A stretch of DNA of 64,000 bases from Acutalibacteraceae bacterium (GCA_045578165.1 JAZNJR010000003.1:1402-65401); one strand, 5' to 3'; counted from the first letter of the stretch, positions 3,036-19,267 are shown. The notes: a model not told the origin generated them from the sequence alone. Numbers and translations: made by a program.

Positions 3036-4034
3036 CTAAGCCATTGTTTCAAGCATTTTTATGCTGACTTCGTAATTAGTATGATTACCTTCGGTATAAT
3101 TTTTAAATTCATCATACATATATTCCGACATTCTATACATTTCATTACCGAAACTTCCCGCCACGTGAGGTGTTAAAATACAATTAGGTAACGTGTAAAA
3201 TGGATGTTCAGCTTCGGGTGGCTCGGGTAACGTAACGTCCAAAACGGCGGTAATATCAGGGCGGTTTGTAAGCGCGGTTACCAAATCGTTTTCTACAACC
3301 TGCGCTCCACGACCTGTATTTAAAAACGTAGCATAAGGCAACATTGAATTAAAATGTTCAAATTTTAGCATACCCTTAGTTTCTTTATTGTCGGCAAGAT
3401 GATTTGAAATTACTTGACATTCTTTAAAAATAGTGTCGAGCGATACTTTTTGAACGCCAAGTTCATTAGCTGTTTCATCGGGCAAGAACGGGTCAAAAAC
3501 TAAAACTTGTAAATTATATGCCTTTAGCATATTTATTACTAATTTTCCAATCATTCCTGCACCGATTATGCCAATCTTTACACCATAATTTCCCGGACAG
3601 GCTTTAGAAAATTCACGTGCTCTTTCGTAGTAACCATTTTTAGTAAGCATACTACTTTGATAAAAACCTTTGTTTGCCAAGATTATATTTGCTACGGTAT
3701 ATTCAGCAACGGGAATAGCATTTGCAGCCCAAGCCGAAAAAACCTTTACACCACATTCTAAAAACGGCTTTGCAAATTTTTTCACCGAGCCTGCGGCATA
3801 AAAAACACATTTTAAAGATGGAAAAATCCCCTTAATTTCTTCATTTGTGAAGGTTGGCATATCCCACGTTGAAAAAATATATTCGGTATCTTTAAAAATT
3901 AGCTTATTTTCTAAAACCTCTGCTTTGTTATAGCAAACACCATCAGATCCACTTTCTTCAAGGGTTTTAATAACGTTTTTACTGTAAACACGACTGAAGG
4001 TTTCTTTTTCGGAACAAATAAAAGCAATTTGCAT
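3036..4034 (-). CDS. D-isomer-specific 2-hydroxyacid dehydrogenase family protein (NAD-binding)
   Basis: 332 aa. Rossmann motif GIIGAGMIGKLV, then NTGRGAQVVENDL and ILTPHVAGS, typical of the family. Last gene of the minus-strand operon. Confidence 0.85.
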   Translation of the reverse strand: MQIAFICSEKETFSRVYSKNVIKTLEESGSDGVCYNKAEVLENKLIFKDTEYIFSTWDMPTFTNEEIKGIFPSLKCVFYAAGSVKKFAKPFLECGVKVFSAWAANAIPVAEYTVANIILANKGFYQSSMLTKNGYYERAREFSKACPGNYGVKIGIIGAGMIGKLVINMLKAYNLQVLVFDPFLPDETANELGVQKVSLDTIFKECQVISNHLADNKETKGMLKFEHFNSMLPYATFLNTGRGAQVVENDLVTALTNRPDITAVLDVTLPEPPEAEHPFYTLPNCILTPHVAGSFGNEMYRMSEYMYDEFKNYTEGNHTNYEVSIKMLETMA

Positions 4035-4043
4035 TTTTATCCC

Positions 4044-6344
4044 TCACAAATTATATTTTTTTATTGTAACGATTATTTTTTCATTTTTAATATTTTTGCC
4101 GTAAATCGCTATCTTTTTATATTGAGAATTATCTTTATGCGGTTTGCTTTGAATTTCTTTTCTTAACGGTTCGCAATCCATAATAAGAATTTCGGCATTC
4201 GCGTTTGTTGAAAGTGAAAATATTATGGCTTTGCCGTTTTGCGAAAGTTTAACAGTATTTTTATCAAGGACTGTTATTTGCGCTTTAGTATGGAAGAACG
4301 AATATATTTCAGAATCATCTTCCAGATCAAATTCATCACAAATACAAAATTCGGTACGGTTGTTTAAAAGAGCAAACTTACGTGTAACCTTTTTTGCATT
4401 ATCATAAGCAGTTGTTAAATCAACAACACAAAATGCAGAATCCGCTTTAGAATCAAACTCAATTATATCACAAACTGCGTTGGGGTTTTGGTCGGCAAGG
4501 CAATCACTATTATAGGGGTTAATTACAATAGTGTTATTACCCTCGGCACGTTTGCGGTAGTAGTTCCACCTGCCTGCATTTTTGCCGTATTCCCACATAC
4601 CGGGCATATCGTATTCCTCTATGCCGAGCTCAACAAACCAACGCTCACCCAACGTTTCAAACACAAAGGAGCCAAAATCAAGGTCCATATGACAGCTTTT
4701 AGCACCGCCCTTAAAACCAACGTAAATGCTGTTGCTATCGGTGTTAGAGCCCCTTAAATTACCAAGGTTGCCTAAAAAATAATCGGTTGGCGCTTTTTCT
4801 AAATAATTGTTACTCAGCATATCTTCTTTGAAGAAAATAAGGTCTTGGTAACTGTAAGTTTGCGGTTTGTTTTCTAAATAAAACTGTGCGTAGTCATAGC
4901 GGTTATAAAGCTGTGCCAACCACATAAGCGACGGCGCTACAACGTTTGTATCGGGCTTTGCATCATAATAATTAAAACATTCCCTGGTGTTGCCCGTCAT
5001 AGAAATTATATAATCACCCGTTGTATCAAGCCCTTTGACGTCGCGCATTCCAAAATCGGTGCCAAGCGCTTTTATAAGCGATGCCTCATAAATATAAAAA
5101 TTGCTTTGACCATAATTCCAATAATTAGGGCCTTCGGTATAAACGCCGCGAGGGGAGAGGGTTTTGAGATTAAGAAAAATCGCCTCAATTGTGAGATTAA
5201 TAATTTCGTTTGAAATTCCCTCACAACCTTCTTCATCACCAATTGCAAGTCCCAAAAGTCCCAAACCCGAAGAGGTAACGGTGTTATGGTTTGTGTCGTT
5301 ACACGCAAACTGCTTCTTTTGGCGCAACTGGTTAATCATTGCTTCCATACCATTTTTAAGCATACCGTTTCGCATTATGCGTTTTTCTTCTTCGGTCCAT
5401 TCATCATAAAGCCAGTCGTAAGCAATTGCAACAGGTCGCGCCATATCACCTACGTCAATATCGTGTGTGGGGTTCCAATCGGGGAAACGGCAAACAGATA
5501 AAACCTCTTCCCTTGCTCTATCTTTATATTTTTTGTCACCGCTTATTATATACGCAATAAGTAGATACGGTACGTTAAGTAACGCCTGTCTTGAAAGACG
5601 TCTGCCGTCGGATAATTCGTGGCAAATTACAGGTAAATTTAAAGCATTATCGGCTTTTTTAAGCGCGTCTTTACAAGCTTCATTCATAAAAGGTATGGTT
5701 TTAGTATAATGCTTTATGTTATTAAAATCTTCCCTTGTTGCTATAAGTCTTGGGTGTGCTTTATTTGGAAAACGTTCTTTTAAAAGTGATATTGCATCGT
5801 ATTTTTGCGGTTTAATTCCTTCAACGCGATAATCGGTATTTTCATCCACTTCAATAAATCTTTCTTTCACGTCGGGCAGGGGGTCATTTGTAACCCAAAC
5901 ACTGTCAAGCGCTATTTCGGTTTCCGTTGGGGGAAGGCAATAAAAGGGCTGCAAAAAACCATAACCGGTTATTTTTTCGTAGCCGTTTTTAGGGCTACCG
6001 TTTGTAACAATACCCTTAAAAAGTGGGAAGGTTAAAATCTTATGCCCCGACCACGAAACAGTAAAATGATATGTGTAACAGGTTTTGTTAATATCGGTGT
6101 CTTCGGTAAATGCTTGAAAGCAAATAACTGCGTGGGAGGGATTTTTTGAATATATGGAAAGCTGTAAATAATTATAACCTGTCCAACTATCGTTGGCTTT
6201 TTTTATAAACATTTTATTTTCTTTTATTGAATTATTAGAAAACAAAATGGCATTTTTACCTATAAATTTTTCATCGCTTATAATCGGAAAATTGTATTCA
6301 TCAGATTTAGCATTAGAAAAATCAAGAATGACTTTTTTATCCAT
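4044..6344 (-). CDS. heparinase II/III-like (polysaccharide-lyase fold) protein, no signal peptide, with an N-terminal ~170-aa extra domain
   Basis: 766 aa. NHNTVTSSGLGLLGLA and EGPNYWNYG in the helical toroid part, and CHMDLDFGSFVFE (H-x-D...F) in the C-terminal sheet domain, as in the heparinase II/III / alginate-lyase superfamily. The N-terminus MDKKVILDFSN is not a signal peptide. Confidence 0.7.
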   Translation of the reverse strand: MDKKVILDFSNAKSDEYNFPIISDEKFIGKNAILFSNNSIKENKMFIKKANDSWTGYNYLQLSIYSKNPSHAVICFQAFTEDTDINKTCYTYHFTVSWSGHKILTFPLFKGIVTNGSPKNGYEKITGYGFLQPFYCLPPTETEIALDSVWVTNDPLPDVKERFIEVDENTDYRVEGIKPQKYDAISLLKERFPNKAHPRLIATREDFNNIKHYTKTIPFMNEACKDALKKADNALNLPVICHELSDGRRLSRQALLNVPYLLIAYIISGDKKYKDRAREEVLSVCRFPDWNPTHDIDVGDMARPVAIAYDWLYDEWTEEEKRIMRNGMLKNGMEAMINQLRQKKQFACNDTNHNTVTSSGLGLLGLAIGDEEGCEGISNEIINLTIEAIFLNLKTLSPRGVYTEGPNYWNYGQSNFYIYEASLIKALGTDFGMRDVKGLDTTGDYIISMTGNTRECFNYYDAKPDTNVVAPSLMWLAQLYNRYDYAQFYLENKPQTYSYQDLIFFKEDMLSNNYLEKAPTDYFLGNLGNLRGSNTDSNSIYVGFKGGAKSCHMDLDFGSFVFETLGERWFVELGIEEYDMPGMWEYGKNAGRWNYYRKRAEGNNTIVINPYNSDCLADQNPNAVCDIIEFDSKADSAFCVVDLTTAYDNAKKVTRKFALLNNRTEFCICDEFDLEDDSEIYSFFHTKAQITVLDKNTVKLSQNGKAIIFSLSTNANAEILIMDCEPLRKEIQSKPHKDNSQYKKIAIYGKNIKNEKIIVTIKKYNL

Positions 6345-6359
6345 TTAAAAAACTCCCGT

Positions 6360-7103
6360 CTATTTTGCAATCAATTTTAGTGCATTGCTTTCATTTTTAA
6401 GGGTTTCAATTTTATCGTCGGGCATAAACTCCAAAAGCAATGTTTTATCGCTTTCAAAGCACTGTAAATATTCTTTCCAGCTATCAATATCATCGGCTAA
6501 CGGAAGACGATTATCACCCTTCCAATTAAAAACGTGAATATATTTAACATAGTCGCTTATATTTTTAGCATAGAAAATATTTTCTTCAAAGCTTAACAAC
6601 TGTTGTGGTTGCCAATACATTAAAAACGCCTTACTGTTTACTGCTTCCATAAGTTCTAAAGCCGATTTTTCGGTGTTTGTATAGGTGCCGTTATGGCATT
6701 CCATACAAACCGTAACTGCGTTTTCTTCAGCGATAGCGGCAACGTTTTTACATTCGTTAAAAAGTGCGGTTTTTTCATCCTCGCTATAATCCTGCGAATT
6801 TTTATTTCCACACCAAAGTCTTAAAACGTTAGTCCCTAAAATTTTAGCGGCGTATATATATTCTTGCAATTCTTCCTTAGGGGTTACACCAATTTTGAAA
6901 TACGTTCCGTAAGAACTGCATTTTATATTATATTCCTTTTGAAGATTTGCAAGGTTTTTAAGTTTCTCTATATCTTTCTGCGGTGCGTGAACGTCACTTC
7001 CCCATTCGATATATAAAAGACCTGCATTTTTCATTTCGGTCAATATTTCTTGCGGTGTGTTTTTTCTGAAAGAAATAGAACAAAGTCCCAAATTAAAGCT
7101 CAT
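6360..7103 (-). CDS. sugar phosphate isomerase/epimerase (xylose-isomerase-like TIM barrel) family protein
   Basis: 247 aa. The pattern IEWGSDVH ... LRLWCG ... CMECHNGTYT ... IHVFNW fits the AP-endonuclease-2 / xylose-isomerase-like barrel family. 16 nt upstream of the lyase-like gene. Confidence 0.7.
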   Translation of the reverse strand: MSFNLGLCSISFRKNTPQEILTEMKNAGLLYIEWGSDVHAPQKDIEKLKNLANLQKEYNIKCSSYGTYFKIGVTPKEELQEYIYAAKILGTNVLRLWCGNKNSQDYSEDEKTALFNECKNVAAIAEENAVTVCMECHNGTYTNTEKSALELMEAVNSKAFLMYWQPQQLLSFEENIFYAKNISDYVKYIHVFNWKGDNRLPLADDIDSWKEYLQCFESDKTLLLEFMPDDKIETLKNESNALKLIAK

Positions 7104-7261
7104 TTATATCACCCATTTCAATATGGAGTTTATCGTTGTTGATTTTATGCACACGACCAAGACCGCGCTTTTGCGATATATTCGTGGATTTGCTCAAGAG
7201 TATATGCCGACAGCGATTTTTCCATTATAACAAGATAAATTTTTTATTTTTCTTGTTATCT

Positions 7262-9160
7262 TTAAAAAATATTTTTGTTTTCTCTATACTGTTTCCACAC
7301 GTTTTCAAAAAAATCGACGTTTTGGGGTATTGGTCTTACGTTTCGCCAAGAGGATTCAAAACCGTTTTTACAAAGTACGGTTTCTTGAACTTTATTGCGG
7401 GTATTTCCGTTTTCTTCGTTAAAACGGAACGTTTCTTCAAGCCCGTCACAAAGCTTACCGTTTTTATCAAAATAAAGCGCCGAACCTCTTGTATCACCAA
7501 CGGTTTGGGAATAATTGATCATAGCGTTTAAAACTGCGCTTTGCGTGTAAAGTATATCCTTTAGCTTATAGTATTTATAAACCTCAGAATTATCCTTAAC
7601 ACCCACCTTGTAAAGCTGTGAAATTTCAAGCTTAATTTCTTCCAAAGCTTTGCACATGGCATCAACGTTTCTAATAGCAGCCGCACAATCGCTCATTCTT
7701 CTTTGCGCGTTTTCTATATAACCTTCTACATTGTTGGTATTAGCTATAACGTTAAAAATTTCGGCTTTGGCATTGTTTTTGGCATTAGTATAAATTTTTT
7801 CAAAAATACCGTCATCAATCGCAGTATTAGCATTTTGTGATATATACTGTGCCGCACGAAGACCACCTACTTGACCCGCGTTAAGTGCCGAGCCACCCGG
7901 TCTTGTAATACCGTGCGTGCCCGCACATTCACCCGCACAAAACAAACCCTTAATGTTTGTTTGCCACCACATATTAACCGCAATACCACCGTTGTTATGC
8001 TGAGCGCAAAGTGCAATTTCGAGGTATTCCTTAGTAAGGTCAACACCCTTGCTTTTATATAATTCAATAGCAGGGGTATTCATTTTAAACAGTCTTTCTA
8101 TTGGTGTGCCAAATAAAGCATTCGCGTTATTTAAATATTCAAAAGCTTCCTTAGACAATTTACTATACTCGATATTTATCATATTAAACGGATTTTTCGT
8201 AAAGTCAAGGTAAACCTTGCGTTTTTTTAAAACACACTCGCGATAAACGAGTAAATCGATTATCGACGACCCCGTAAGCACCTTTTTAGAATCAAACGGC
8301 CATTGATAACCTTTTAAAAATACCATTGAAAGCGCTTCGTATTTGTCGCTAAAATAATCGGCTAAAAATTCGTGTTCATTTTTGTTTTCGTCAATAGACA
8401 CAAAGCGGGGGAGCACCTGCATATAAGTGCCCGAAACGTTCCAACGCGGGTTTATAGATGCCAAACCGTACTGCCATTCGGTTAAATTTTGTGCTTTAGC
8501 ACCCGCTAAAAGTGCCAAGCTTGTAGTACCTGTGTGACATTTTGGAAATACACTGTCGGCGTAAATTCCCGCAGGGCCACCCGTACACATTACAATATCC
8601 GCACACTTAAATGCAACAAATTCGCCGCTTTGCTTTTCTAAACATAAAAGCCCGCAAACGCCGTTATCGTGCTTTAGTATTTCAACGGCAAGATATCCGC
8701 TAAAGGTTGGAATATTTAAATTTTCGGCATTCTTTTGCAATGCCTCGGTCATAAATTTAGAGGTTAACGGTCCTGCCGAGGTTGCGCGTGCATAGGGGTC
8801 GTGGTCGGTTTTATAGCCGACGTATTCACCGTATCTATTAACGGGAAAATCAACACCTAATTCGCACAAATTCATAAACGACCTTACCGATAAAGCCGCC
8901 TCGCAAAGCGCGTTATCACCGTCGACACTACCGCCCGCAAAAAGATTTTCAGCCATTTTATAAATACTGTCGGGGCTGTCACCGCCAAGACCCAACTTGT
9001 AGTAGGTTTGCTTGTCACTGCCTGTATTTCGCGAGGTGCCGCAGTTGGTGGCTTCGGTAACGATTGCAACGTTTTTATTAAATTGTTTTAAGCGGCAAGC
9101 GGCATTGTAGCCCGCAGCGCCCGTACCTATTACTATAGTATCAAATTTAAAAAGCTTCAT
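7262..9160 (-). CDS. FAD-binding oxidoreductase of the fumarate reductase / succinate dehydrogenase / L-aspartate oxidase flavoprotein superfamily
   Basis: 632 aa. N-terminal dinucleotide fold DTIVIGTGAAGYNAA, plus GLFCAGECAGTHGITRPGGSALNAGQVGG, which resembles the conserved FAD-domain segment of Frd/Sdh flavoproteins. Its ATG overlaps the SDR stop (TAATG). Confidence 0.75.
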   Translation of the reverse strand: MKLFKFDTIVIGTGAAGYNAACRLKQFNKNVAIVTEATNCGTSRNTGSDKQTYYKLGLGGDSPDSIYKMAENLFAGGSVDGDNALCEAALSVRSFMNLCELGVDFPVNRYGEYVGYKTDHDPYARATSAGPLTSKFMTEALQKNAENLNIPTFSGYLAVEILKHDNGVCGLLCLEKQSGEFVAFKCADIVMCTGGPAGIYADSVFPKCHTGTTSLALLAGAKAQNLTEWQYGLASINPRWNVSGTYMQVLPRFVSIDENKNEHEFLADYFSDKYEALSMVFLKGYQWPFDSKKVLTGSSIIDLLVYRECVLKKRKVYLDFTKNPFNMINIEYSKLSKEAFEYLNNANALFGTPIERLFKMNTPAIELYKSKGVDLTKEYLEIALCAQHNNGGIAVNMWWQTNIKGLFCAGECAGTHGITRPGGSALNAGQVGGLRAAQYISQNANTAIDDGIFEKIYTNAKNNAKAEIFNVIANTNNVEGYIENAQRRMSDCAAAIRNVDAMCKALEEIKLEISQLYKVGVKDNSEVYKYYKLKDILYTQSAVLNAMINYSQTVGDTRGSALYFDKNGKLCDGLEETFRFNEENGNTRNKVQETVLCKNGFESSWRNVRPIPQNVDFFENVWKQYRENKNIF

Positions 9161-9885
9161 TATAATCTCCTAATATGGAAACCGCCGTCAACGTCAATCG
9201 ACTGACCCGTAACGTATGGTAAGCTACCGTTACAAAGTGTCCAAACAGCACTTGCAATATCTTCGGGTTTGCCCCAACGTTTGATTGGAAGTAAACCATC
9301 GTTAATAAGTGCGTCATACTTTTCTTTTACCTTGTCGGTCATACCTGTTGCAATTATGCCGGGGCGTATTTCGTTTACCATAATGCCATATTCGGCAAGG
9401 CGGTCGGCAAAAAGGGTAGTTATCATAGTAACACCCGCTTTACTGATACAATATTCACCTCGACTAACCGAGCTTGTATAACCCGACATTGAAGAAATAT
9501 TTACAATACTACCCGACTTTTCTTTTTTCATAATATTTGCGACAGCTTGAGTTAAAAACAAAGTGCCCTTTGTGTTAATATTCATAACAAAGTCGTATGA
9601 TTCTTCGGTCATTTCAAGAATATCGTTTCTAACCATTGGGGCAACACCTGCAACGTTTACAAGTATATCAATCCTGCCATATTTATCCATTGCGGCTTTA
9701 ATATAGCTTTCGCGTGATTCTTTACTGCTTAAATCACCTTTAAAATATGTAAATTCACCCTCTAAAGCATTAGGCATTTCGGGTAAAACATCCATACCAA
9801 CAACAGCAACGTTGTTTTCAAGTAAAAGCTTTGCAGTAGCAAAGCCAATACCACCCGCTACTCCTGTTACTAACGCTACTTTCAT
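9160..9885 (-). CDS. short-chain dehydrogenase/reductase (SDR)
   Basis: 241 aa. TGVAGGIGFA (TGxxxGxG), NISS, YCISKAG (YxxxK). Its start overlaps the upstream stop (TAATG). Confidence 0.9.
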   Translation of the reverse strand: MKVALVTGVAGGIGFATAKLLLENNVAVVGMDVLPEMPNALEGEFTYFKGDLSSKESRESYIKAAMDKYGRIDILVNVAGVAPMVRNDILEMTEESYDFVMNINTKGTLFLTQAVANIMKKEKSGSIVNISSMSGYTSSVSRGEYCISKAGVTMITTLFADRLAEYGIMVNEIRPGIIATGMTDKVKEKYDALINDGLLPIKRWGKPEDIASAVWTLCNGSLPYVTGQSIDVDGGFHIRRL

Positions 9886-11219
9886 TATTTAAAACCTCCG
9901 CATTGTTTTTCGTAAATGGGCATATATATTTCTTTATCTCTTATAACGCAACCGGGTGTACCGCCTGCACGCATAATTTCTGTACACTTAGAGCAACAAA
10001 GGCAAATTTTATTTTTGTCCATAAAGCCGTTTTTAATAATATCATTTGCAAAATTGGGGTATGCAAAAATTGTTCTGCCAAAGCCCGCAAAATCAAATTT
10101 ATTGTTTTCAATGTATGCCGCTGCAACGTTTGGTGCCGCAACCCCTAAATATGAAATTGCCGAGCATATTATAGCCATTTCGGGGTTTAATTCTTTAAGC
10201 TTTGCGGTGGCATTTAAAATTCGTTCAACCCCTTTGAGCGGATGCTCGGGGGCAGTGTAGCCACCTTTCGCATAAGGACGGTTTACATGCGGATTAAAAT
10301 AAGGGTTACCCATAGTGATATTCAGTAACCTTACACCGTATTTGTAAAGTTCTTTTATTAACCAATCGGGCTCGGTTTCATCAAAATCTATGCTTTCGTC
10401 TTTTTTTACACCAAAGCCGTAGGGGTAGGGAAAACCGTCGTAAATATTTAAACGCGAGGACACAATAAAATCCTTTGAACAGCTTTCAATCGAACCTTTT
10501 ATACTTTCGCGCAAAAGTCTTGTTCGGTTTTCCAAGCTTCCGCCATATTTACCGTCGCGCATAAAGGCAGACAAAAGCTCTGAATTTAAGTATCTATGGC
10601 AGCACTTAATATCTACACCGTCAAATCCTGCTTTTTCGGCAAGTATAGCACCATTAATTAACGAATCGCGAACTCTATCAAGATATTCATCGGTTACTAT
10701 TTTTCTTTTATCTATGGGGTTATCCTTTTCAAAAATTGGATTATTATATGCAATAAGCGGTGCGGGAATGCCGTTCGGCTTTGAATATCTGCCCGAATGT
10801 GTTGCCTGCATAATAACAATTGGCTCGTACCCGTTTTCTTTTAGTGCCTTTTCTTTTATACTCTCAACCTGTTTTTTAAAATCGTCAAGGTTATTATTGT
10901 TAATGTGAAGCTGATGTGGGTTTGCTTTACCTTCCTCCATTACTGCGGTGGCTTCAAACCATATAAGCCCTGCACCACCCGTAGCAAGTCGTTCATAGCG
11001 CCTTTTTGTAAGTGTATCGGGCGAGCCGAATTTAGTACCGTCGCACCCCTCCATAGCTTGACATATGAGGCGGTTGGGCACTTTTTTGTTACCAATAGTT
11101 AGTGGCTTTTTTAAAACATCTATATCATTAATAAATGGTAAAGCTGTGCCTGTTTCTAAATTTTCCTTTAAAAATGCCTCTTTATTAAAATAAACCGAAT
11201 TAGCCATATAACAACCCAT
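9885..11219 (-). CDS. Old-Yellow-Enzyme-like NADH:flavin oxidoreductase with a C-terminal 4Fe-4S motif, lacking the NAD(P)H/FAD C-terminal domain
   Basis: 444 aa. OYE barrel signatures (CQAMEGCDG, ATHSGRYSKP, GFDGVDIKCCHRYL). C-terminal CLCCSKCTEIMRAGGTPGC matches the Cx2Cx2Cx11C cluster of the 2,4-dienoyl-CoA reductase / enoate reductase / BaiH-type family. The start may instead be the ATG at 11207. Confidence 0.75.
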   Translation of the reverse strand: MGCYMANSVYFNKEAFLKENLETGTALPFINDIDVLKKPLTIGNKKVPNRLICQAMEGCDGTKFGSPDTLTKRRYERLATGGAGLIWFEATAVMEEGKANPHQLHINNNNLDDFKKQVESIKEKALKENGYEPIVIMQATHSGRYSKPNGIPAPLIAYNNPIFEKDNPIDKRKIVTDEYLDRVRDSLINGAILAEKAGFDGVDIKCCHRYLNSELLSAFMRDGKYGGSLENRTRLLRESIKGSIESCSKDFIVSSRLNIYDGFPYPYGFGVKKDESIDFDETEPDWLIKELYKYGVRLLNITMGNPYFNPHVNRPYAKGGYTAPEHPLKGVERILNATAKLKELNPEMAIICSAISYLGVAAPNVAAAYIENNKFDFAGFGRTIFAYPNFANDIIKNGFMDKNKICLCCSKCTEIMRAGGTPGCVIRDKEIYMPIYEKQCGGFK

Positions 11220-11274
11220 TTTCTTTATTATTTTACATTTATTGTAAATGAAATTTAAAACAATATATATATCT

Positions 11275-11303
11275 ATCTTGCTGAAAAATATGTAAATCTT
11301 GCT
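11275..11303. promoter_or_regulatory. direct repeat ATCTTGCT x2 with 21-bp period in the divergent promoter region (candidate AraC-type operator)
   Basis: ATCTTGCT at 11275-11282 and 11296-11303, lying between the operon start (11219, minus) and the AraC start (11359, plus). A TATAAT lies at about 11320. Confidence 0.3.
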
Positions 11304-11358
11304 TTTTTGTAAAAATATATTATAATAATTACAGTATTGTTTTAAAGGGGAATTGTTT

Positions 11359-12153
11359 ATGACACCAATTCTTGCGGCAAGGTATTCTGTATCAAATTCT
11401 ATACCGAGAAAATCACCGCATTATCACGATTCGCATCAGTTATTATATATAGCCGAGGGCAGTGCTGAAATTACAATAGATGGTAAGCAGTATCTTGCCG
11501 AAAGCGGTGCGCTTATTGTAATAAGCCGACTTGAAATGCACTCTATAACGGTAAAAAGCAATACTTATAAACGGTATGCGCTTCGTATAAATCCGGAATA
11601 TACCCCTAACCATAATATCGGTTATCTTTATTCGGTGTTTGTAAACCGACCCGCGGGCTTTAGCCACGTTATATATGCGAACGAAAAGCTTGAAAGCATT
11701 ATTTCAAACATTGTGAATGAATATAATAATTGCGAAATGCTGTCAGAAGAAATGCAAAGCTTGCTTTTAGAGGAATTGTTAATTTCTTTGTATCGCAGCA
11801 GTCCAAATTCGTTTGCCGCAAATGACCGTAAAAACGAAATAGTAGACGATATTTGCAAAAAAATAAAAAATAATTTAAATGCAAAAATTTCGTTGGCTAT
11901 GCTTGCGAAAAGCGCGCATTTAAACGAATATTATCTTTCACATATTTTTAAATCGGTTACGGGTTATTCGATTATGGGGTATGTGATGTCATTAAGAATA
12001 GCCACCGCTAAAAGAATGTTAACAAAAACCGAAATGTCGATTAGTGAAATAATTGAATATTGCGGATTTTCAGATGGTAGTAATTTTAGCCGTACTTTTC
12101 GCAAAACAACAGGCGTTTCACCTAGCGAATTCCGAAAAAATTTTAAAAAATAA
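11359..12153 (+). CDS. AraC family transcriptional regulator (cupin sensor + HTH)
   Basis: C-terminal AraC HTH (LAKSAHLNEYYLSHIFKSVTGYS ... IEYCGFSDGSNFSRTFRKTTGVSPSEFR) and an N-terminal cupin-like domain. The start is moved from the track's TTG (11353) to the ATG at 11359, which sits 8 nt after AAAGGGG. Confidence 0.85.
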   Translation: MTPILAARYSVSNSIPRKSPHYHDSHQLLYIAEGSAEITIDGKQYLAESGALIVISRLEMHSITVKSNTYKRYALRINPEYTPNHNIGYLYSVFVNRPAGFSHVIYANEKLESIISNIVNEYNNCEMLSEEMQSLLLEELLISLYRSSPNSFAANDRKNEIVDDICKKIKNNLNAKISLAMLAKSAHLNEYYLSHIFKSVTGYSIMGYVMSLRIATAKRMLTKTEMSISEIIEYCGFSDGSNFSRTFRKTTGVSPSEFRKNFKK

Positions 12154-12470: not shown

Positions 12471-12797
12471 GACATTAATTACACAGAAAGAAACTGGAAT
12501 ACCACTTTAAGAACTATGGACATATTAAACGGTGCAAAGGTGTACCGCAATAAAGTGGTAGAATCCACAATACCTTATAAGGATAAGTTAACACCTTATA
12601 ATTTGCGTCATACATACTGCACTATGCTGAATGATTGCAACATAAGTGAATACTTCAAGAAGCGTCTTATGGGACATACATTATCCGATTCTATAACGGA
12701 TAGTGTTTACACCCACTCCTCTGAGGGAAAAATAATAAGAGCGGCAAAGCCGTTCTTAACTCACTTTCAAAAACTATTCGCCCAAGCGTTGAAATAA
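12471..12797 (+). pseudogene. tyrosine recombinase (integrase) C-terminal fragment
   Basis: Only about 100 aa. LTPYNLRHTYCTML ... RLMGHTLSDSITDSVYTH carries the conserved R, H and catalytic Y region of the tyrosine recombinase catalytic domain. The N-terminal ~250 aa are absent. The frame is open from 12366 but upstream residues look unrelated. Confidence 0.7.
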
Positions 12798-13066: not shown

Positions 13067-13086
13067 TTAAGTTTTACATAAAAAAT

Positions 13087-13121
13087 AAAAGCACCGACTT
13101 AATTAGTCAGTGCTTCTTTTA
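13087..13121 (-). terminator. rho-independent terminator of tRNA-Gln
   Basis: In tRNA sense: CCA-TAAAAGAA-GCACTGAC-TAATTAA-GTCGGTGC-TTTTATTTTTT. Confidence 0.7.
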
Positions 13122-13195
13122 TGGCTGGGGAATAGGGATTCGAACCCCAACAAACAGAGTCAGAGTCTGTCGTGCTACCGTTACACAATTCCCCA
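13122..13195 (-). tRNA. tRNA-Gln: tRNA-Gln (anticodon CTG), CCA encoded
   Basis: Hand-folded. Acceptor TGGGGAA/TTCCCCA, D stem GTGT/GCAC, anticodon stem ACAGA/TCTGT with loop CTCTGAC (anticodon CTG), T arm TGGGG-TTCGAAT-CCCTA, discriminator G, CCA. Confidence 0.9.
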
Positions 13196-13551: not shown

Positions 13552-13556
13552 AAAAA

Positions 13557-13590
13557 GCACCGACTAATTAAGTCGGTGCTTTTTGTTTTT
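13557..13590. terminator. bidirectional terminator (after X-Ala on plus, after the CE4 gene on minus)
   Basis: GCACCGAC-TAATTAA-GTCGGTGC flanked by an A-run (13551-13556) and a T-run (13580-13590). The CE4 stop codon is at 13589-13591. Confidence 0.65.
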
Positions 13591-17852: not shown

Positions 17853-17929
17853 TATGGTGTATAAATGGCGGTAGTTTTTTCAAAAAACAAGAACGCCCCG
17901 AAAATGTAGTGTTTCTAAGGAGGAATACG

Positions 17930-19267
17930 ATGTATCTTAAAAGAAAAATTTCGGCTTTGCTTTTGATTGTGGTTATGCTTTGCTGCGCGGTGGGTTGTGC
18001 AGGCGGCACACGCAACGAATATGAAACCGACCGCGAAATACCCGACGTTGATAAAGCAACTGCAAATCTTAATGAAGATGATAAGCCACCCGTAACCGAA
18101 AAGGTTAAGTGGGACGGTCCTGCAGGTTATACAATTGTTGTGCCTAAGGGTAATGCACAGCTTTTAGAAGTTGCCAACAAATTTAACGACTGGATTAAGA
18201 AACAAACCGGTAAAGGTCTTAAAGTTGTAACCGACGATACTGCCGCAACCGATAAGGAAATTATAATCGGTAAAACCAAACGTTATGATTATTCTGCCAA
18301 AGAGGGCGAATATTTCGCAAAGGTAGACGGTAAGAAGCTTATTTTTGGCGGCGGTCACAACGTTACCATAAAGAAAGCTGTTGAAATCTATACCCGTTTG
18401 AAATATACAAAGGGTAAGGCATATACATATAGCGGTAATTCTGACTTTGTTGCGGAAAAATTCGGCTATACATACGTATGGGGCGATGAATTTGAAGGTA
18501 ACGAGCTTAACGACAAGCTTTGGGACCGCGTTACAAAAATGGCTGCCACCGCTGAAATGAGTTTGGACAACACCGAACTTACAACCAAAACCGAAAACGG
18601 TTATCTTAAAATGCTTGCAATGAGATATTGGGACCCCAAAAAAGGCGGCGTTGAATTTGTTGCTCCTTGGTCTGTTACAACCAGCAGCACCATGAACTAT
18701 AAATACGGTTACGTTGAAATTCGTGCAAAGGTTCCCTTTATTCGTGGCGTATGGCCTTCTTTCTGGACTTCAAGCCCAGGCGAGCTTGCGCCCCCGCGTA
18801 CTGCCAACTACTCTATTGAAGTTGACGTATTTGAGGTTTTCTCAAGTCTTGATACATTGTCGCCTAATATTCACAAATGGTATACCGACGGTCGTCACAC
18901 AATGTGGGCGGTTGATGAAGGCAACAGTAACGAATGGTATAAGTTTGAATCTGACAACCTTATTGAAGAATATCATCTTTACGGCTTTGAATGGACACCT
19001 ACCAAAATGACCATGTATATCGACAATAAGGCATATTACACCTATGACATTACCAAAAACTTTGATAATGGCGAAACAGGTATGGGTGGTTACAATACAA
19101 CCTTGTATCTTATTTTCAACAACCACTTGTTTACACAGTCAAGCAGTTATAAACCTTATGAGGGTTGCGAAGTTCGTGCAACCGACCTTCCCGCAGAATA
19201 TGCAATTGACTGGGTACGTCTTTATCAGAAAAACGATGGCAAGAGCCAACTTTATCTTAAAAAATAA
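17930..19267 (+). CDS. lipoprotein with a C-terminal GH16 beta-glycanase domain
   Basis: The start is moved to the ATG at 17930, after TAAGGAGG. Lipobox LCCAVGC. GH16 catalytic motif SIEVDVFE (ExDxxE). The ~150-aa N-terminal domain is of unknown role. Confidence 0.8.
   Translation: MYLKRKISALLLIVVMLCCAVGCAGGTRNEYETDREIPDVDKATANLNEDDKPPVTEKVKWDGPAGYTIVVPKGNAQLLEVANKFNDWIKKQTGKGLKVVTDDTAATDKEIIIGKTKRYDYSAKEGEYFAKVDGKKLIFGGGHNVTIKKAVEIYTRLKYTKGKAYTYSGNSDFVAEKFGYTYVWGDEFEGNELNDKLWDRVTKMAATAEMSLDNTELTTKTENGYLKMLAMRYWDPKKGGVEFVAPWSVTTSSTMNYKYGYVEIRAKVPFIRGVWPSFWTSSPGELAPPRTANYSIEVDVFEVFSSLDTLSPNIHKWYTDGRHTMWAVDEGNSNEWYKFESDNLIEEYHLYGFEWTPTKMTMYIDNKAYYTYDITKNFDNGETGMGGYNTTLYLIFNNHLFTQSSSYKPYEGCEVRATDLPAEYAIDWVRLYQKNDGKSQLYLKK

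Follow-up and report, generated by a model that had tools for sequence, protein, structure and literature searches.

A predicted cytoplasmic PL35-clade lyase within a redox-rich operon of an Acutalibacteraceae bacterium: a possible non-canonical route from uronate oligosaccharides to 2-keto-3-deoxygluconate

In the canonical route for unsaturated uronates, a polysaccharide lyase (PL) is followed by GH88/GH105, KduI or DhuI, KduD or DhuD, and then by KdgK and Eda (PMC12838403). Among lyases of family PL35, the catalytic residues of GAGase VII were identified by mutagenesis as Asn187, Tyr241 and His397 (PMC12088678). In another kind of system, the Klebsiella FRD and the Vibrio ARD, an NADH-oxidising domain resembling the Old Yellow Enzyme (OYE) passes electrons through a relay flavin to an enoate-reducing FAD_binding_2 domain (bioRxiv 10.1101/2022.01.20.477176). 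Moreover, TIM-barrel proteins annotated as “sugar phosphate isomerase” have been proven to be 3-keto-glycoside 1,2-lyases (bioRxiv 10.1101/2024.03.25.586180; PMC10628242), a Gram-positive glucuronide-cleaving cluster being among the examples (bioRxiv 10.1101/2024.03.25.586180). Here we describe an operon of an Acutalibacteraceae bacterium (GCA_045578165.1) that brings together a lyase-fold gene, an OYE-family gene, a gene related to fumarate reductase (Frd-like), a TIM-barrel gene and two dehydrogenase genes. It lies with its regulator at positions 3036-12153 of a 64,000-nucleotide (nt) stretch (JAZNJR010000003.1:1402-65401), referred to as the window, whose first letter is the origin of all coordinates given below. 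No description of this gene module was found in the literature, and nothing relevant that combines OYE, Frd-like proteins and lyases, or ene-reductases and 2-keto-3-deoxygluconate (KDG); a paper on a xanthan locus mentions none of these genes. As far as we have found, the lyase-initiated uronate utilisation with a non-canonical downstream module that we propose for this locus has thus not been described previously.

We suggest, with a probability of roughly 0.4, that the locus is one AraC-controlled catabolic unit composed of two modules, forming a self-contained, non-canonical route from uronate oligosaccharides to KDG. The lyase, located in the cytoplasm and probably exo-acting, would beta-eliminate an imported uronate-containing oligosaccharide, yielding a 4,5-unsaturated uronate. 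This unsaturated or 4-deoxy-5-keto uronate would then be turned into KDG by the five redox and TIM enzymes, and the KdgK and Eda of the genome would complete the route. The five-enzyme conversion is proposed because of the gene context and because GH88, KduI/KduD, DhuI/DhuD, UxaC and UxuA were not found in the genome. Within it, the TIM protein and one NAD(P) dehydrogenase would take over the job of KduI/KduD, and the OYE and Frd-like proteins would be an electron-coupled pair (FMN to 4Fe-4S to FAD) that reduces an activated C=C bond in the product of elimination, whether an enoate or an enone. This flavoprotein step is the least secure; the pairing is suggested by the coupling of the genes through TAATG junctions, by a 4Fe-4S motif in a protein with no reductase domain, and by the OYE-like/FAD_binding_2 precedent mentioned above.

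Open reading frames (ORFs) were assigned to families by Pfam and NCBIfam profile searches, using the NCBIfam equivalog cut-offs. Seven were placed, at the coordinates proposed by the first-pass annotation of this DNA, and both databases confirmed the family of each. The AraC-family regulator, which has a cupin ligand domain (11353-12153, plus strand; HTH_18, HTH_AraC and AraC_binding), diverges from six minus-strand genes across a control region (11220-11352) with a promoter-like TTTAAA-16-TATAAT at 11346-11319 on the minus strand, upstream of the OYE gene, this being a consensus match only. The six genes encode, in order, a short OYE-family FMN protein bearing a 4Fe-4S motif (9885-11219; 444 amino acids (aa); Oxidored_FMN), a short-chain dehydrogenase/reductase (SDR; 9160-9885; 241 aa; adh_short_C2, 177 bits), the Frd-like protein, an Sdh/Frd/NadB-like flavoprotein of the non-covalent FAD type with a divergent substrate site (7262-9160; 632 aa; FAD_binding_2, 85 bits), a xylose-isomerase-like TIM-barrel protein (6360-7103; 247 aa; AP_endonuc_2, 59.5 bits), a 766-aa poly- or oligosaccharide lyase of a cytoplasmic PL35 clade (4044-6344; Hepar_II_III_C and DUF4962) and, as the last gene, a D-isomer-specific 2-hydroxyacid dehydrogenase (2HADH; 3036-4034; 332 aa; 2-Hacid_dh_C, 144.9 bits). 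No transporter or glycoside hydrolase gene lies within the operon, as had been noted before. One-base TAATG overlaps occur at both the OYE/SDR and the SDR/Frd junctions, through which the SDR is predicted to be translationally coupled on both sides. The TIM-lyase and lyase-2HADH distances are 15 and 9 nt, and the sole larger one, 158 nt, separates the Frd-like from the TIM gene (7104-7261, minus strand). This gap proved to be real; a consensus scan of its minus strand detected no terminator-like and no promoter-like site. Directly 3' of the Frd-like stop codon, at 7222-7261 on the minus strand, there is an AT-rich hairpin made of ATAACAAGA, a 13-nt loop and TCTTGTTAT, with no T-run, which might be a scar left by recombination or a site of RNA processing at the module junction.

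Residues 191-716 of the 766-aa protein match three solved PL35 lyases, 8KHW, 9O3Q and 8KHV, with E values of about 1e-55 (phmmer; 9.6e-56 to 8KHW). Its AlphaFold model (predicted local distance difference test (pLDDT) 87.8, predicted template-modelling score (pTM) 0.85) resembles GAGase II and VII with a Foldseek template-modelling (TM) score of 0.87 (E 2.5e-36 to 8KHV), and displays an N-terminal beta-sandwich (residues ~1-155), an (alpha/alpha) toroid and a C-terminal beta-sandwich. The catalytic Tyr/His/Asn constellation, whose loss the first-pass annotation had named as an argument against its proposal, is retained: N352, Y408 and H552 are the aligned counterparts of GAGase VII Asn187, Tyr241 and His397, and they do not vary in an alignment of 30 homologues. 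We detected no signal peptide or hydrophobic N-terminal stretch, in line with what had been noted. The protein is thus predicted, from fold and catalytic residues, to be an intact cytoplasmic PL35-clade lyase. It forms a distinct clade with only six close relatives found, at 39-97% identity. At the positions of the PL35 Mn2+ site (His403, Asp405, Asp421 and His457 of GAGase II) it has D554, D556, E572 and N603, and these substitutions are common to most of the cytoplasmic clade, position 572 varying between Glu and Asp. The His-Asn motif of the alginate-active GAGase III was also considered and dropped, as a Thr precedes N352. Among the Foldseek matches listed, alignment over about the whole length (776-806 columns) was seen only for the exo-lyases PL15 Atu3025 and exoHep, whereas the PL17, PL33 and PL21 entries cover ~650-690 columns. 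The fit to Atu3025 and exoHep is loose (root-mean-square deviation 13.5-14.9, TM ~0.55-0.59). This whole-length alignment with exo-acting PL15 lyases hints at an exo mode on imported oligosaccharides.

Clade members in other genomes are found with an ATP-binding cassette (ABC) importer and GH88, with AraC and GH88-like genes, or with surface-layer homology (SLH) surface proteins, a glycyl-radical enzyme, GH88, KduI and KduD, which by analogy is the context expected of a genuine uronate lyase. In two loci, L001 (12397-18424) and L006 (12354-15380), a glycyl-radical enzyme and its activase come after lyase homologues of 39-50% identity; further downstream lie either an ADP-ribosylglycohydrolase-like gene and an SDR, or GH88, KduI and KduD, and upstream three very large SLH-domain surface proteins.

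The uronate-pathway genes were searched in the genome of the bacterium itself, which is 97% complete. No PF07470 match (GH88/GH105) was obtained, UxaC and UxuA were not found, and neither was a DhuI-DhuD cluster, the single RpiB-family gene having no adjacent SDR. The sole KduI-family gene (PF04962) lies ~8.5-12 kb past the right end of the window in an inositol-type cluster (G000:C3:73943-77698), where a KduI/IolB-family isomerase is accompanied by a PfkB kinase, a class II aldolase and an FGGY kinase; given this iol-like cluster, the Pfam match was rejected as a KduI. KdgK and Eda are present (contig C11, ~50.8-52.4 kb; Eda 210.9 bits), the KdgK being 79% identical to a KdgK linked to a related operon (L070). 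Since the canonical steps are unrecognisable and KdgK/Eda are present, the operon is the only visible link from the lyase product to KDG in this genome. The contrast with GH88/KduI/KduD pathways drawn by the first-pass annotation therefore stands for the operon and its genome, where none of them was found; it was incomplete in that close lyase homologues elsewhere do sit with GH88, KduI and KduD.

Frd-like and short OYE proteins have thousands of homologues each, at 70-83% identity, in metagenome-assembled genomes (MAGs) of the Clostridia/Oscillospiraceae type, often on the same contigs. In a sample of the order comprising 401 genomes from 177 genera, the Frd-like gene was present in 52 genomes and 34 genera; of 24 genomes of the genus, 4 carried it and none carried the lyase. 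Gene-order maps were drawn for 45 loci, 41 of them with an Frd-like gene, and the usual order was a divergent AraC, OYE, SDR, Frd-like, a variable gene of ~560-600 aa, TIM and 2HADH. OYE accompanied the Frd-like gene at 37 of those 41 loci, while over all 45 the SDR was seen at 30, AraC at 28, 2HADH at 25 and TIM at 20; annotated metagenome contigs showed the same module arrangement. On the basis of these maps and contigs, the five non-lyase genes and AraC occur together widely, and the concern that the six genes might never co-occur elsewhere does not apply. Homologues of the Frd-like protein at 44-46% identity (L085, L090, L091) lie in unrelated contexts without OYE and were set aside as uninformative on the OYE-SDR-Frd trio. 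One genus mate (G014) contains three Frd-like copies with 72-81% identity at separate loci (C25:10128-12020, C33:132-2027 and C21:4384-5943), and one of its loci includes Gfo/Idh/MocA genes, a GH63-like gene, a substrate-binding protein (SBP) gene, and an amylase and 3-keto-disaccharide-hydrolase-domain gene. A tripartite ATP-independent periplasmic (TRAP) carboxylate transporter is next to the OYE-SDR-Frd trio in L075 and L079, and a KDG kinase (PfkB) plus a KDPG aldolase are within or adjoining the operon at four loci (L070, L084, L081 and L093). GH88 was present in 15 of the 52 Frd-positive genomes versus 47 of the 349 others, these genomes being phylogenetically non-independent.

A lyase-fold gene is part of the operon at 13 of the 45 loci and belongs to the PL35 clade or to one of two further families, termed c7 and c6. 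The four c7 loci encode a divergent heparinase II/III-like group (Pfam, 25.3 bits) that aligns with PL35 with a probability of 99.8% (hhalign, E 1.9e-28) and retains the Asn/Tyr/His triad and all four metal ligands. Family c6 is an orphan of 538-578 aa with no match in Pfam, NCBIfam, PDB sequences or profiles, encoded at 8 loci (L056, at 4588-6306, L059, L062, L064, L067, L068, L072 and L093); at seven of these it lies between the Frd-like and TIM genes, and in L068 after the 2HADH. The model of a c6 relative with 39% identity (pLDDT 81.5) combines an alpha-toroid with a beta-sandwich, its best PDB matches being PL35, PL15, PL12 and PL8 lyases (E 2e-10, modest TM of ~0.55), and the protein has an H-N-W motif resembling that of PL35; family c6 may therefore be an undescribed lyase family. 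Furthermore, the operon of L096 is flanked by a PL8 lyase, a CE4-dockerin protein, GH38 and mannose-6-phosphate isomerase. Four apparent lyase-fold lineages (PL35 clade, c7, c6 and PL8) in or beside one redox backbone are hard to explain by chance hitch-hiking. Thus the functional link between lyase and redox genes raised by the first-pass annotation gains support from this independent recurrence, with KdgK/Eda and TRAP transporters also present at some related loci, and for the same reasons the mere hitch-hiking that it held equally possible is less likely than was allowed.

The OYE protein has the 4Fe-4S motif C406-x2-C409-x2-C412-x11-C424 and ends at residue 444, with no Pyr_redox_2 match and no C-terminal FAD/NAD(P)H domain; hundreds of its homologues are likewise 435-449 aa long. 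Because this domain is absent, the protein is not a full-length enzyme of the enoate-reductase or BaiH type, as had been proposed, and we describe it as a short form. It is closest to YqjM/GkOYE-type enzymes, and at the positions of His164, His167 and Tyr169 of this type it has K205, H208 and Y210, with R209 in between. Judged from these residues, the site would be cationic with the proton-donor Tyr kept, which suits an anionic ene substrate. The Frd-like protein is distant from Sdh, Frd and NadB (best NCBIfam model TfrA, 123.7 bits, cut-off 718); the covalent-FAD His45 of SdhA is replaced by Asn, Arg390 of FrdA is kept as R420, and FrdA His355 is shifted by one residue (Q387/H388). No protein of the operon matched FMN_bind (PF04205), and by analogy the 4Fe-4S cluster could be the relay between the OYE and Frd-like proteins. 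That one contig, L007, keeps OYE but not Frd argues for a role of its own for OYE as well. The SDR scores 276.7 bits against NCBIfam PRK12745, above its cut-off, and 150-156 bits against KduD models with cut-offs of 339-369. The names BilR, BaiCD, NamA, TfrA, NadB, KduD, PGDH and psicose epimerase were all tried for the operon proteins and rejected, each scoring far under the NCBIfam cut-off.

For the TIM protein the sole PDB sequence match was AsbF, a 3-dehydroshikimate dehydratase (E 6.6e-8), whose reaction is a beta-elimination dependent on a 3-keto group. The nearest PDB relatives of the 2HADH are McyI and PGDH, and it remains under every NCBIfam equivalog cut-off. Next to the OYE-SDR-Frd trio, the TIM domain was also detected fused to a 2HADH (L076:13148-14890, 580 aa) and to an AMP-binding enzyme of the acyl-CoA-ligase type (L073:2007-4472, 821 aa).

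Although the gene order of the six-gene operon is as the first-pass annotation gave it, the six genes do not share one history. Metagenomic contig L007 contains AraC, OYE, TIM, lyase and 2HADH, with neither SDR nor Frd-like gene, and its lyase is 97% identical to ours. At the DNA level the TIM-lyase-2HADH segments of L007 and the window are 97.5% identical and the AraC-OYE segments 86.8%, with blastn breakpoints at 9913 and 7124; the two share no more of the 158-nt spacer than the final 21 nt preceding the TIM gene. These different identities and the gene order of L007 indicate that a TIM-lyase-2HADH cassette, of which TIM is the first gene, has recently joined two distinct versions of the redox backbone. 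The operon is thus a mosaic of module 1 (AraC, short OYE, SDR and Frd-like) and module 2 (TIM, lyase and 2HADH), the lyase gene of the latter sitting between TIM and 2HADH genes that are usually adjacent.

The first-pass annotation had called the region island cargo, and a direct repeat of 86 nt supports this. Its left copy (2244-2329), an att-like border, comprises a terminator hairpin and the 3' half of a tRNA-Gln; the right copy (13080-13165) overlaps the 3' half of the intact tRNA-Gln gene (13122-13195, minus strand), and the two copies are 98% identical and 10,836 bp apart. Between them lies a 93-aa C-terminal remnant of a tyrosine integrase (12516-12797, plus strand), matching positions 124-170 of the 172 of the Pfam Phage_integrase profile with an E value of 2.3e-4, under the Pfam cut-off; this fragment alone, and no functional integrase, was met at the island. 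The repeat with its tRNA-Gln 3' half and the integrase fragment support the view that the region is the cargo of a decayed integrative island of ~10.8 kb at tRNA-Gln. An empty site was sought among 60 genus mates, in which DNA divergence is ~70% and synteny is lost, only G024 being informative: on its contig C14 the hydrolase gene of the left flank lies ~0.9 kb from tRNA-Gln/tRNA-Ala with no island, the right flank being placed on a separate contig. One GC-rich terminator hairpin occurs three times (2251-2282, 13087-13118 and 13553-13584), with 84-94% identity and beside tRNA-type 3' ends. Further to the right, an ORF of 452 aa at 17909-19267 with a GH16 domain (residues 255-383) marks the start of a neighbouring glycan locus.

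Several observations weigh against a lyase-initiated route to KDG. To our knowledge, unsaturated uronate is converted to KDG without a flavoenzyme in every known pathway. In the Frd-like protein, FrdA His232 is replaced by Gly and the capping domain does not align; the exo mode of the lyase has its architecture as sole basis; the gene absences were judged in a MAG of 66 contigs; the OYE-SDR-Frd trio is found elsewhere also with Gfo/Idh/MocA, GH4 and 3-keto-disaccharide-hydrolase genes; and 32 of the 45 redox-gene loci have no recognised lyase-fold gene. The lyase route may also not need SDR and Frd, at least in cis, because L007 has the lyase cassette and OYE without them. The absence of these two genes from L007, the scarcity of lyase-fold genes among the loci, the unequal identity of the two sides of the mosaic, the variants having TRAP, SBP or EamA-like transporters and the use of GH88, KduI and KduD by other lyase homologues would all fit a lyase that is a recombination passenger, metabolically unconnected, in an operon whose redox and TIM genes catabolise a directly imported monomeric sugar acid or other carboxylate. 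We regard this as unlikely, since four unrelated or very distant lyase-fold lineages accompany the same operon, inside it or alongside, the lyase gene, with tight junctions, splits TIM and 2HADH genes that are otherwise adjacent or fused, and the genome offers no other route for the lyase product. It is far harder to accept that the 766-aa protein is no lyase and instead either epimerises uronate at C5 or binds without catalysing a reaction: the fold is shared by human dermatan sulfate epimerase 1 (Foldseek rank 11), DUF4962 is now named “DSE-like_N” in Pfam and two of the four PL35 metal ligands have changed, one from His to Asp and the other from His to Asn, but the triad is intact, by far the nearest relatives are proven lyases, and clade members adjoin GH88, which needs a lyase product.

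The remaining alternatives concern the redox genes. The OYE and Frd-like proteins might serve as a fermentative electron sink, working as a soluble NADH:2-enoate reductase on an enoate from outside (such as fumarate, acrylate or a cinnamate-type acid) and merely co-regulated with sugar-acid genes, as an OYE-like part with FAD_binding_2 is the architecture of NADH:fumarate and NADH:acrylate reductases and the equivalent of FrdA Arg390 is kept. We find this very unlikely given the lack of an FMN_bind domain, the Gly at the His232 position, scores far under every Frd/Sdh/NadB cut-off, and the fact that the pair is always within sugar-related operons with AraC regulators, KdgK/Eda or lyases. Rather improbable as well, if less so, is a redox-assisted removal of the unsaturated uronate in which GH88 is dispensed with. 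In such a route the C3-OH of a 4,5-unsaturated uronyl glycoside would be oxidised by one dehydrogenase, the AsbF-like TIM protein would abstract H2 and eliminate the aglycone at C1-O in the manner of 3-keto-glycoside 1,2-lyases, and the resulting pyranone-type, doubly unsaturated keto-acid would be reduced towards a KDG-type acid by the two flavoenzymes and the second dehydrogenase, which would account for the presence of two C=C reductases and two dehydrogenases. GH88/GH105 were not found in the genome studied and, at scores above the cut-off, are missing from 37 of the 52 Frd-positive genomes; the only PDB sequence relative of the TIM protein is a 3-keto-dependent beta-eliminating dehydratase, related TIM proteins are proven 3-keto-glycoside 1,2-lyases (including the Gram-positive glucuronide-cleaving cluster), and the association of the trio with Gfo/Idh/MocA, GH4 and 3-keto-disaccharide-hydrolase domains points in the same direction. 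On the other hand, the argument is one of chemical analogy purely; known 3-keto pathways use Gfo/Idh/MocA oxidoreductases with no SDR or 2HADH, and they hydrate where this scheme would reduce; and an exo-lyase acting on a polyuronate would not require GH88.

Gut Clostridia of this order are major fermenters of fibre and host glycans, and most carriers of the module have no textbook GH88/GH105. If unsaturated uronates are indeed converted to KDG by the operon, the module, whose first part is widespread in gut and rumen Clostridia, would fill a gap in metabolic reconstructions, present a new split Fe-S/flavin ene-reductase architecture, and assign a function to at least two lyase-fold families that lack annotation, c6 and c7, as well as to the cytoplasmic PL35 clade. 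The locus also illustrates a catabolic cassette that was exchanged among operon backbones and carried by a tRNA-targeting island. A wider and doubtful extension is that the module represents an unknown redox-driven processing of alpha,beta-unsaturated sugars arising from polysaccharide lyases, etherases and 3-keto-glycoside lyases, by C3 oxidation, 1,2-elimination and a split FMN/4Fe-4S/FAD ene-reductase, and that it replaces GH88 and KduI/KduD in many gut Clostridia.

When compared with FadH, enoate reductase and BaiCD/BaiH, the OYE protein shares the OYE TIM barrel with its CxxCxxCx11C 4Fe-4S motif, but enzymes of the FadH/enoate reductase/BaiCD type include FAD and NAD(P)H domains in a chain of ~640-670 aa that are missing here, and its scores against the FadH/BaiCD/BilR-family NCBIfam models are 72-73 bits for cut-offs of 425-825. 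The short-form bilirubin reductase BilR likewise has no reductase domain of its own; its partner is a flavodoxin-like protein, whereas the Frd-like FAD protein would be the partner here. With NADH:enoate reductases made of OYE-like and FMN_bind parts plus FAD_binding_2, the operon has both flavin modules in common, FAD_binding_2 being there the part that reduces 2-enoates; in those enzymes they form a single system, while here they are separate polypeptides with the SDR gene between them, a 4Fe-4S cluster stands where they have the FMN_bind relay, and the fumarate-site His is not conserved. The 3-keto-glycoside 1,2-lyase pathways (AL/BT clusters, the P2B11 glucuronide cluster and OGE/CGE) and AsbF share with our locus a TIM-barrel protein of the xylose-isomerase-like superfamily beside dehydrogenases, yet the operon has no Gfo/Idh/MocA oxidoreductase and its TIM protein is shorter (247 aa).

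The 766-aa protein shares the two-domain catalytic fold and the Asn/Tyr/His triad with the PL35 lyases GAGase II (8KHV), GAGase VII (8KHW) and the B. caccae chondroitinase (9O3Q), from which it differs by an identity of ~24-26% and its position in a separate clade, whose members have an additional N-terminal ~190 aa containing a beta-sandwich, no signal peptide, and NHNTV where PL35 lyases have NWNQV. As to the canonical unsaturated-uronate pathway, its GH88/GH105, KduI and DhuI-DhuD would be replaced here by the TIM protein, two unrelated NAD(P) dehydrogenases and two flavoproteins, the latter having no role in that pathway; the start with a beta-eliminating lyase appears to be common to both, and a common end at KDG is probable from the adjacency of KdgK/Eda to related operons and their presence in this genome.

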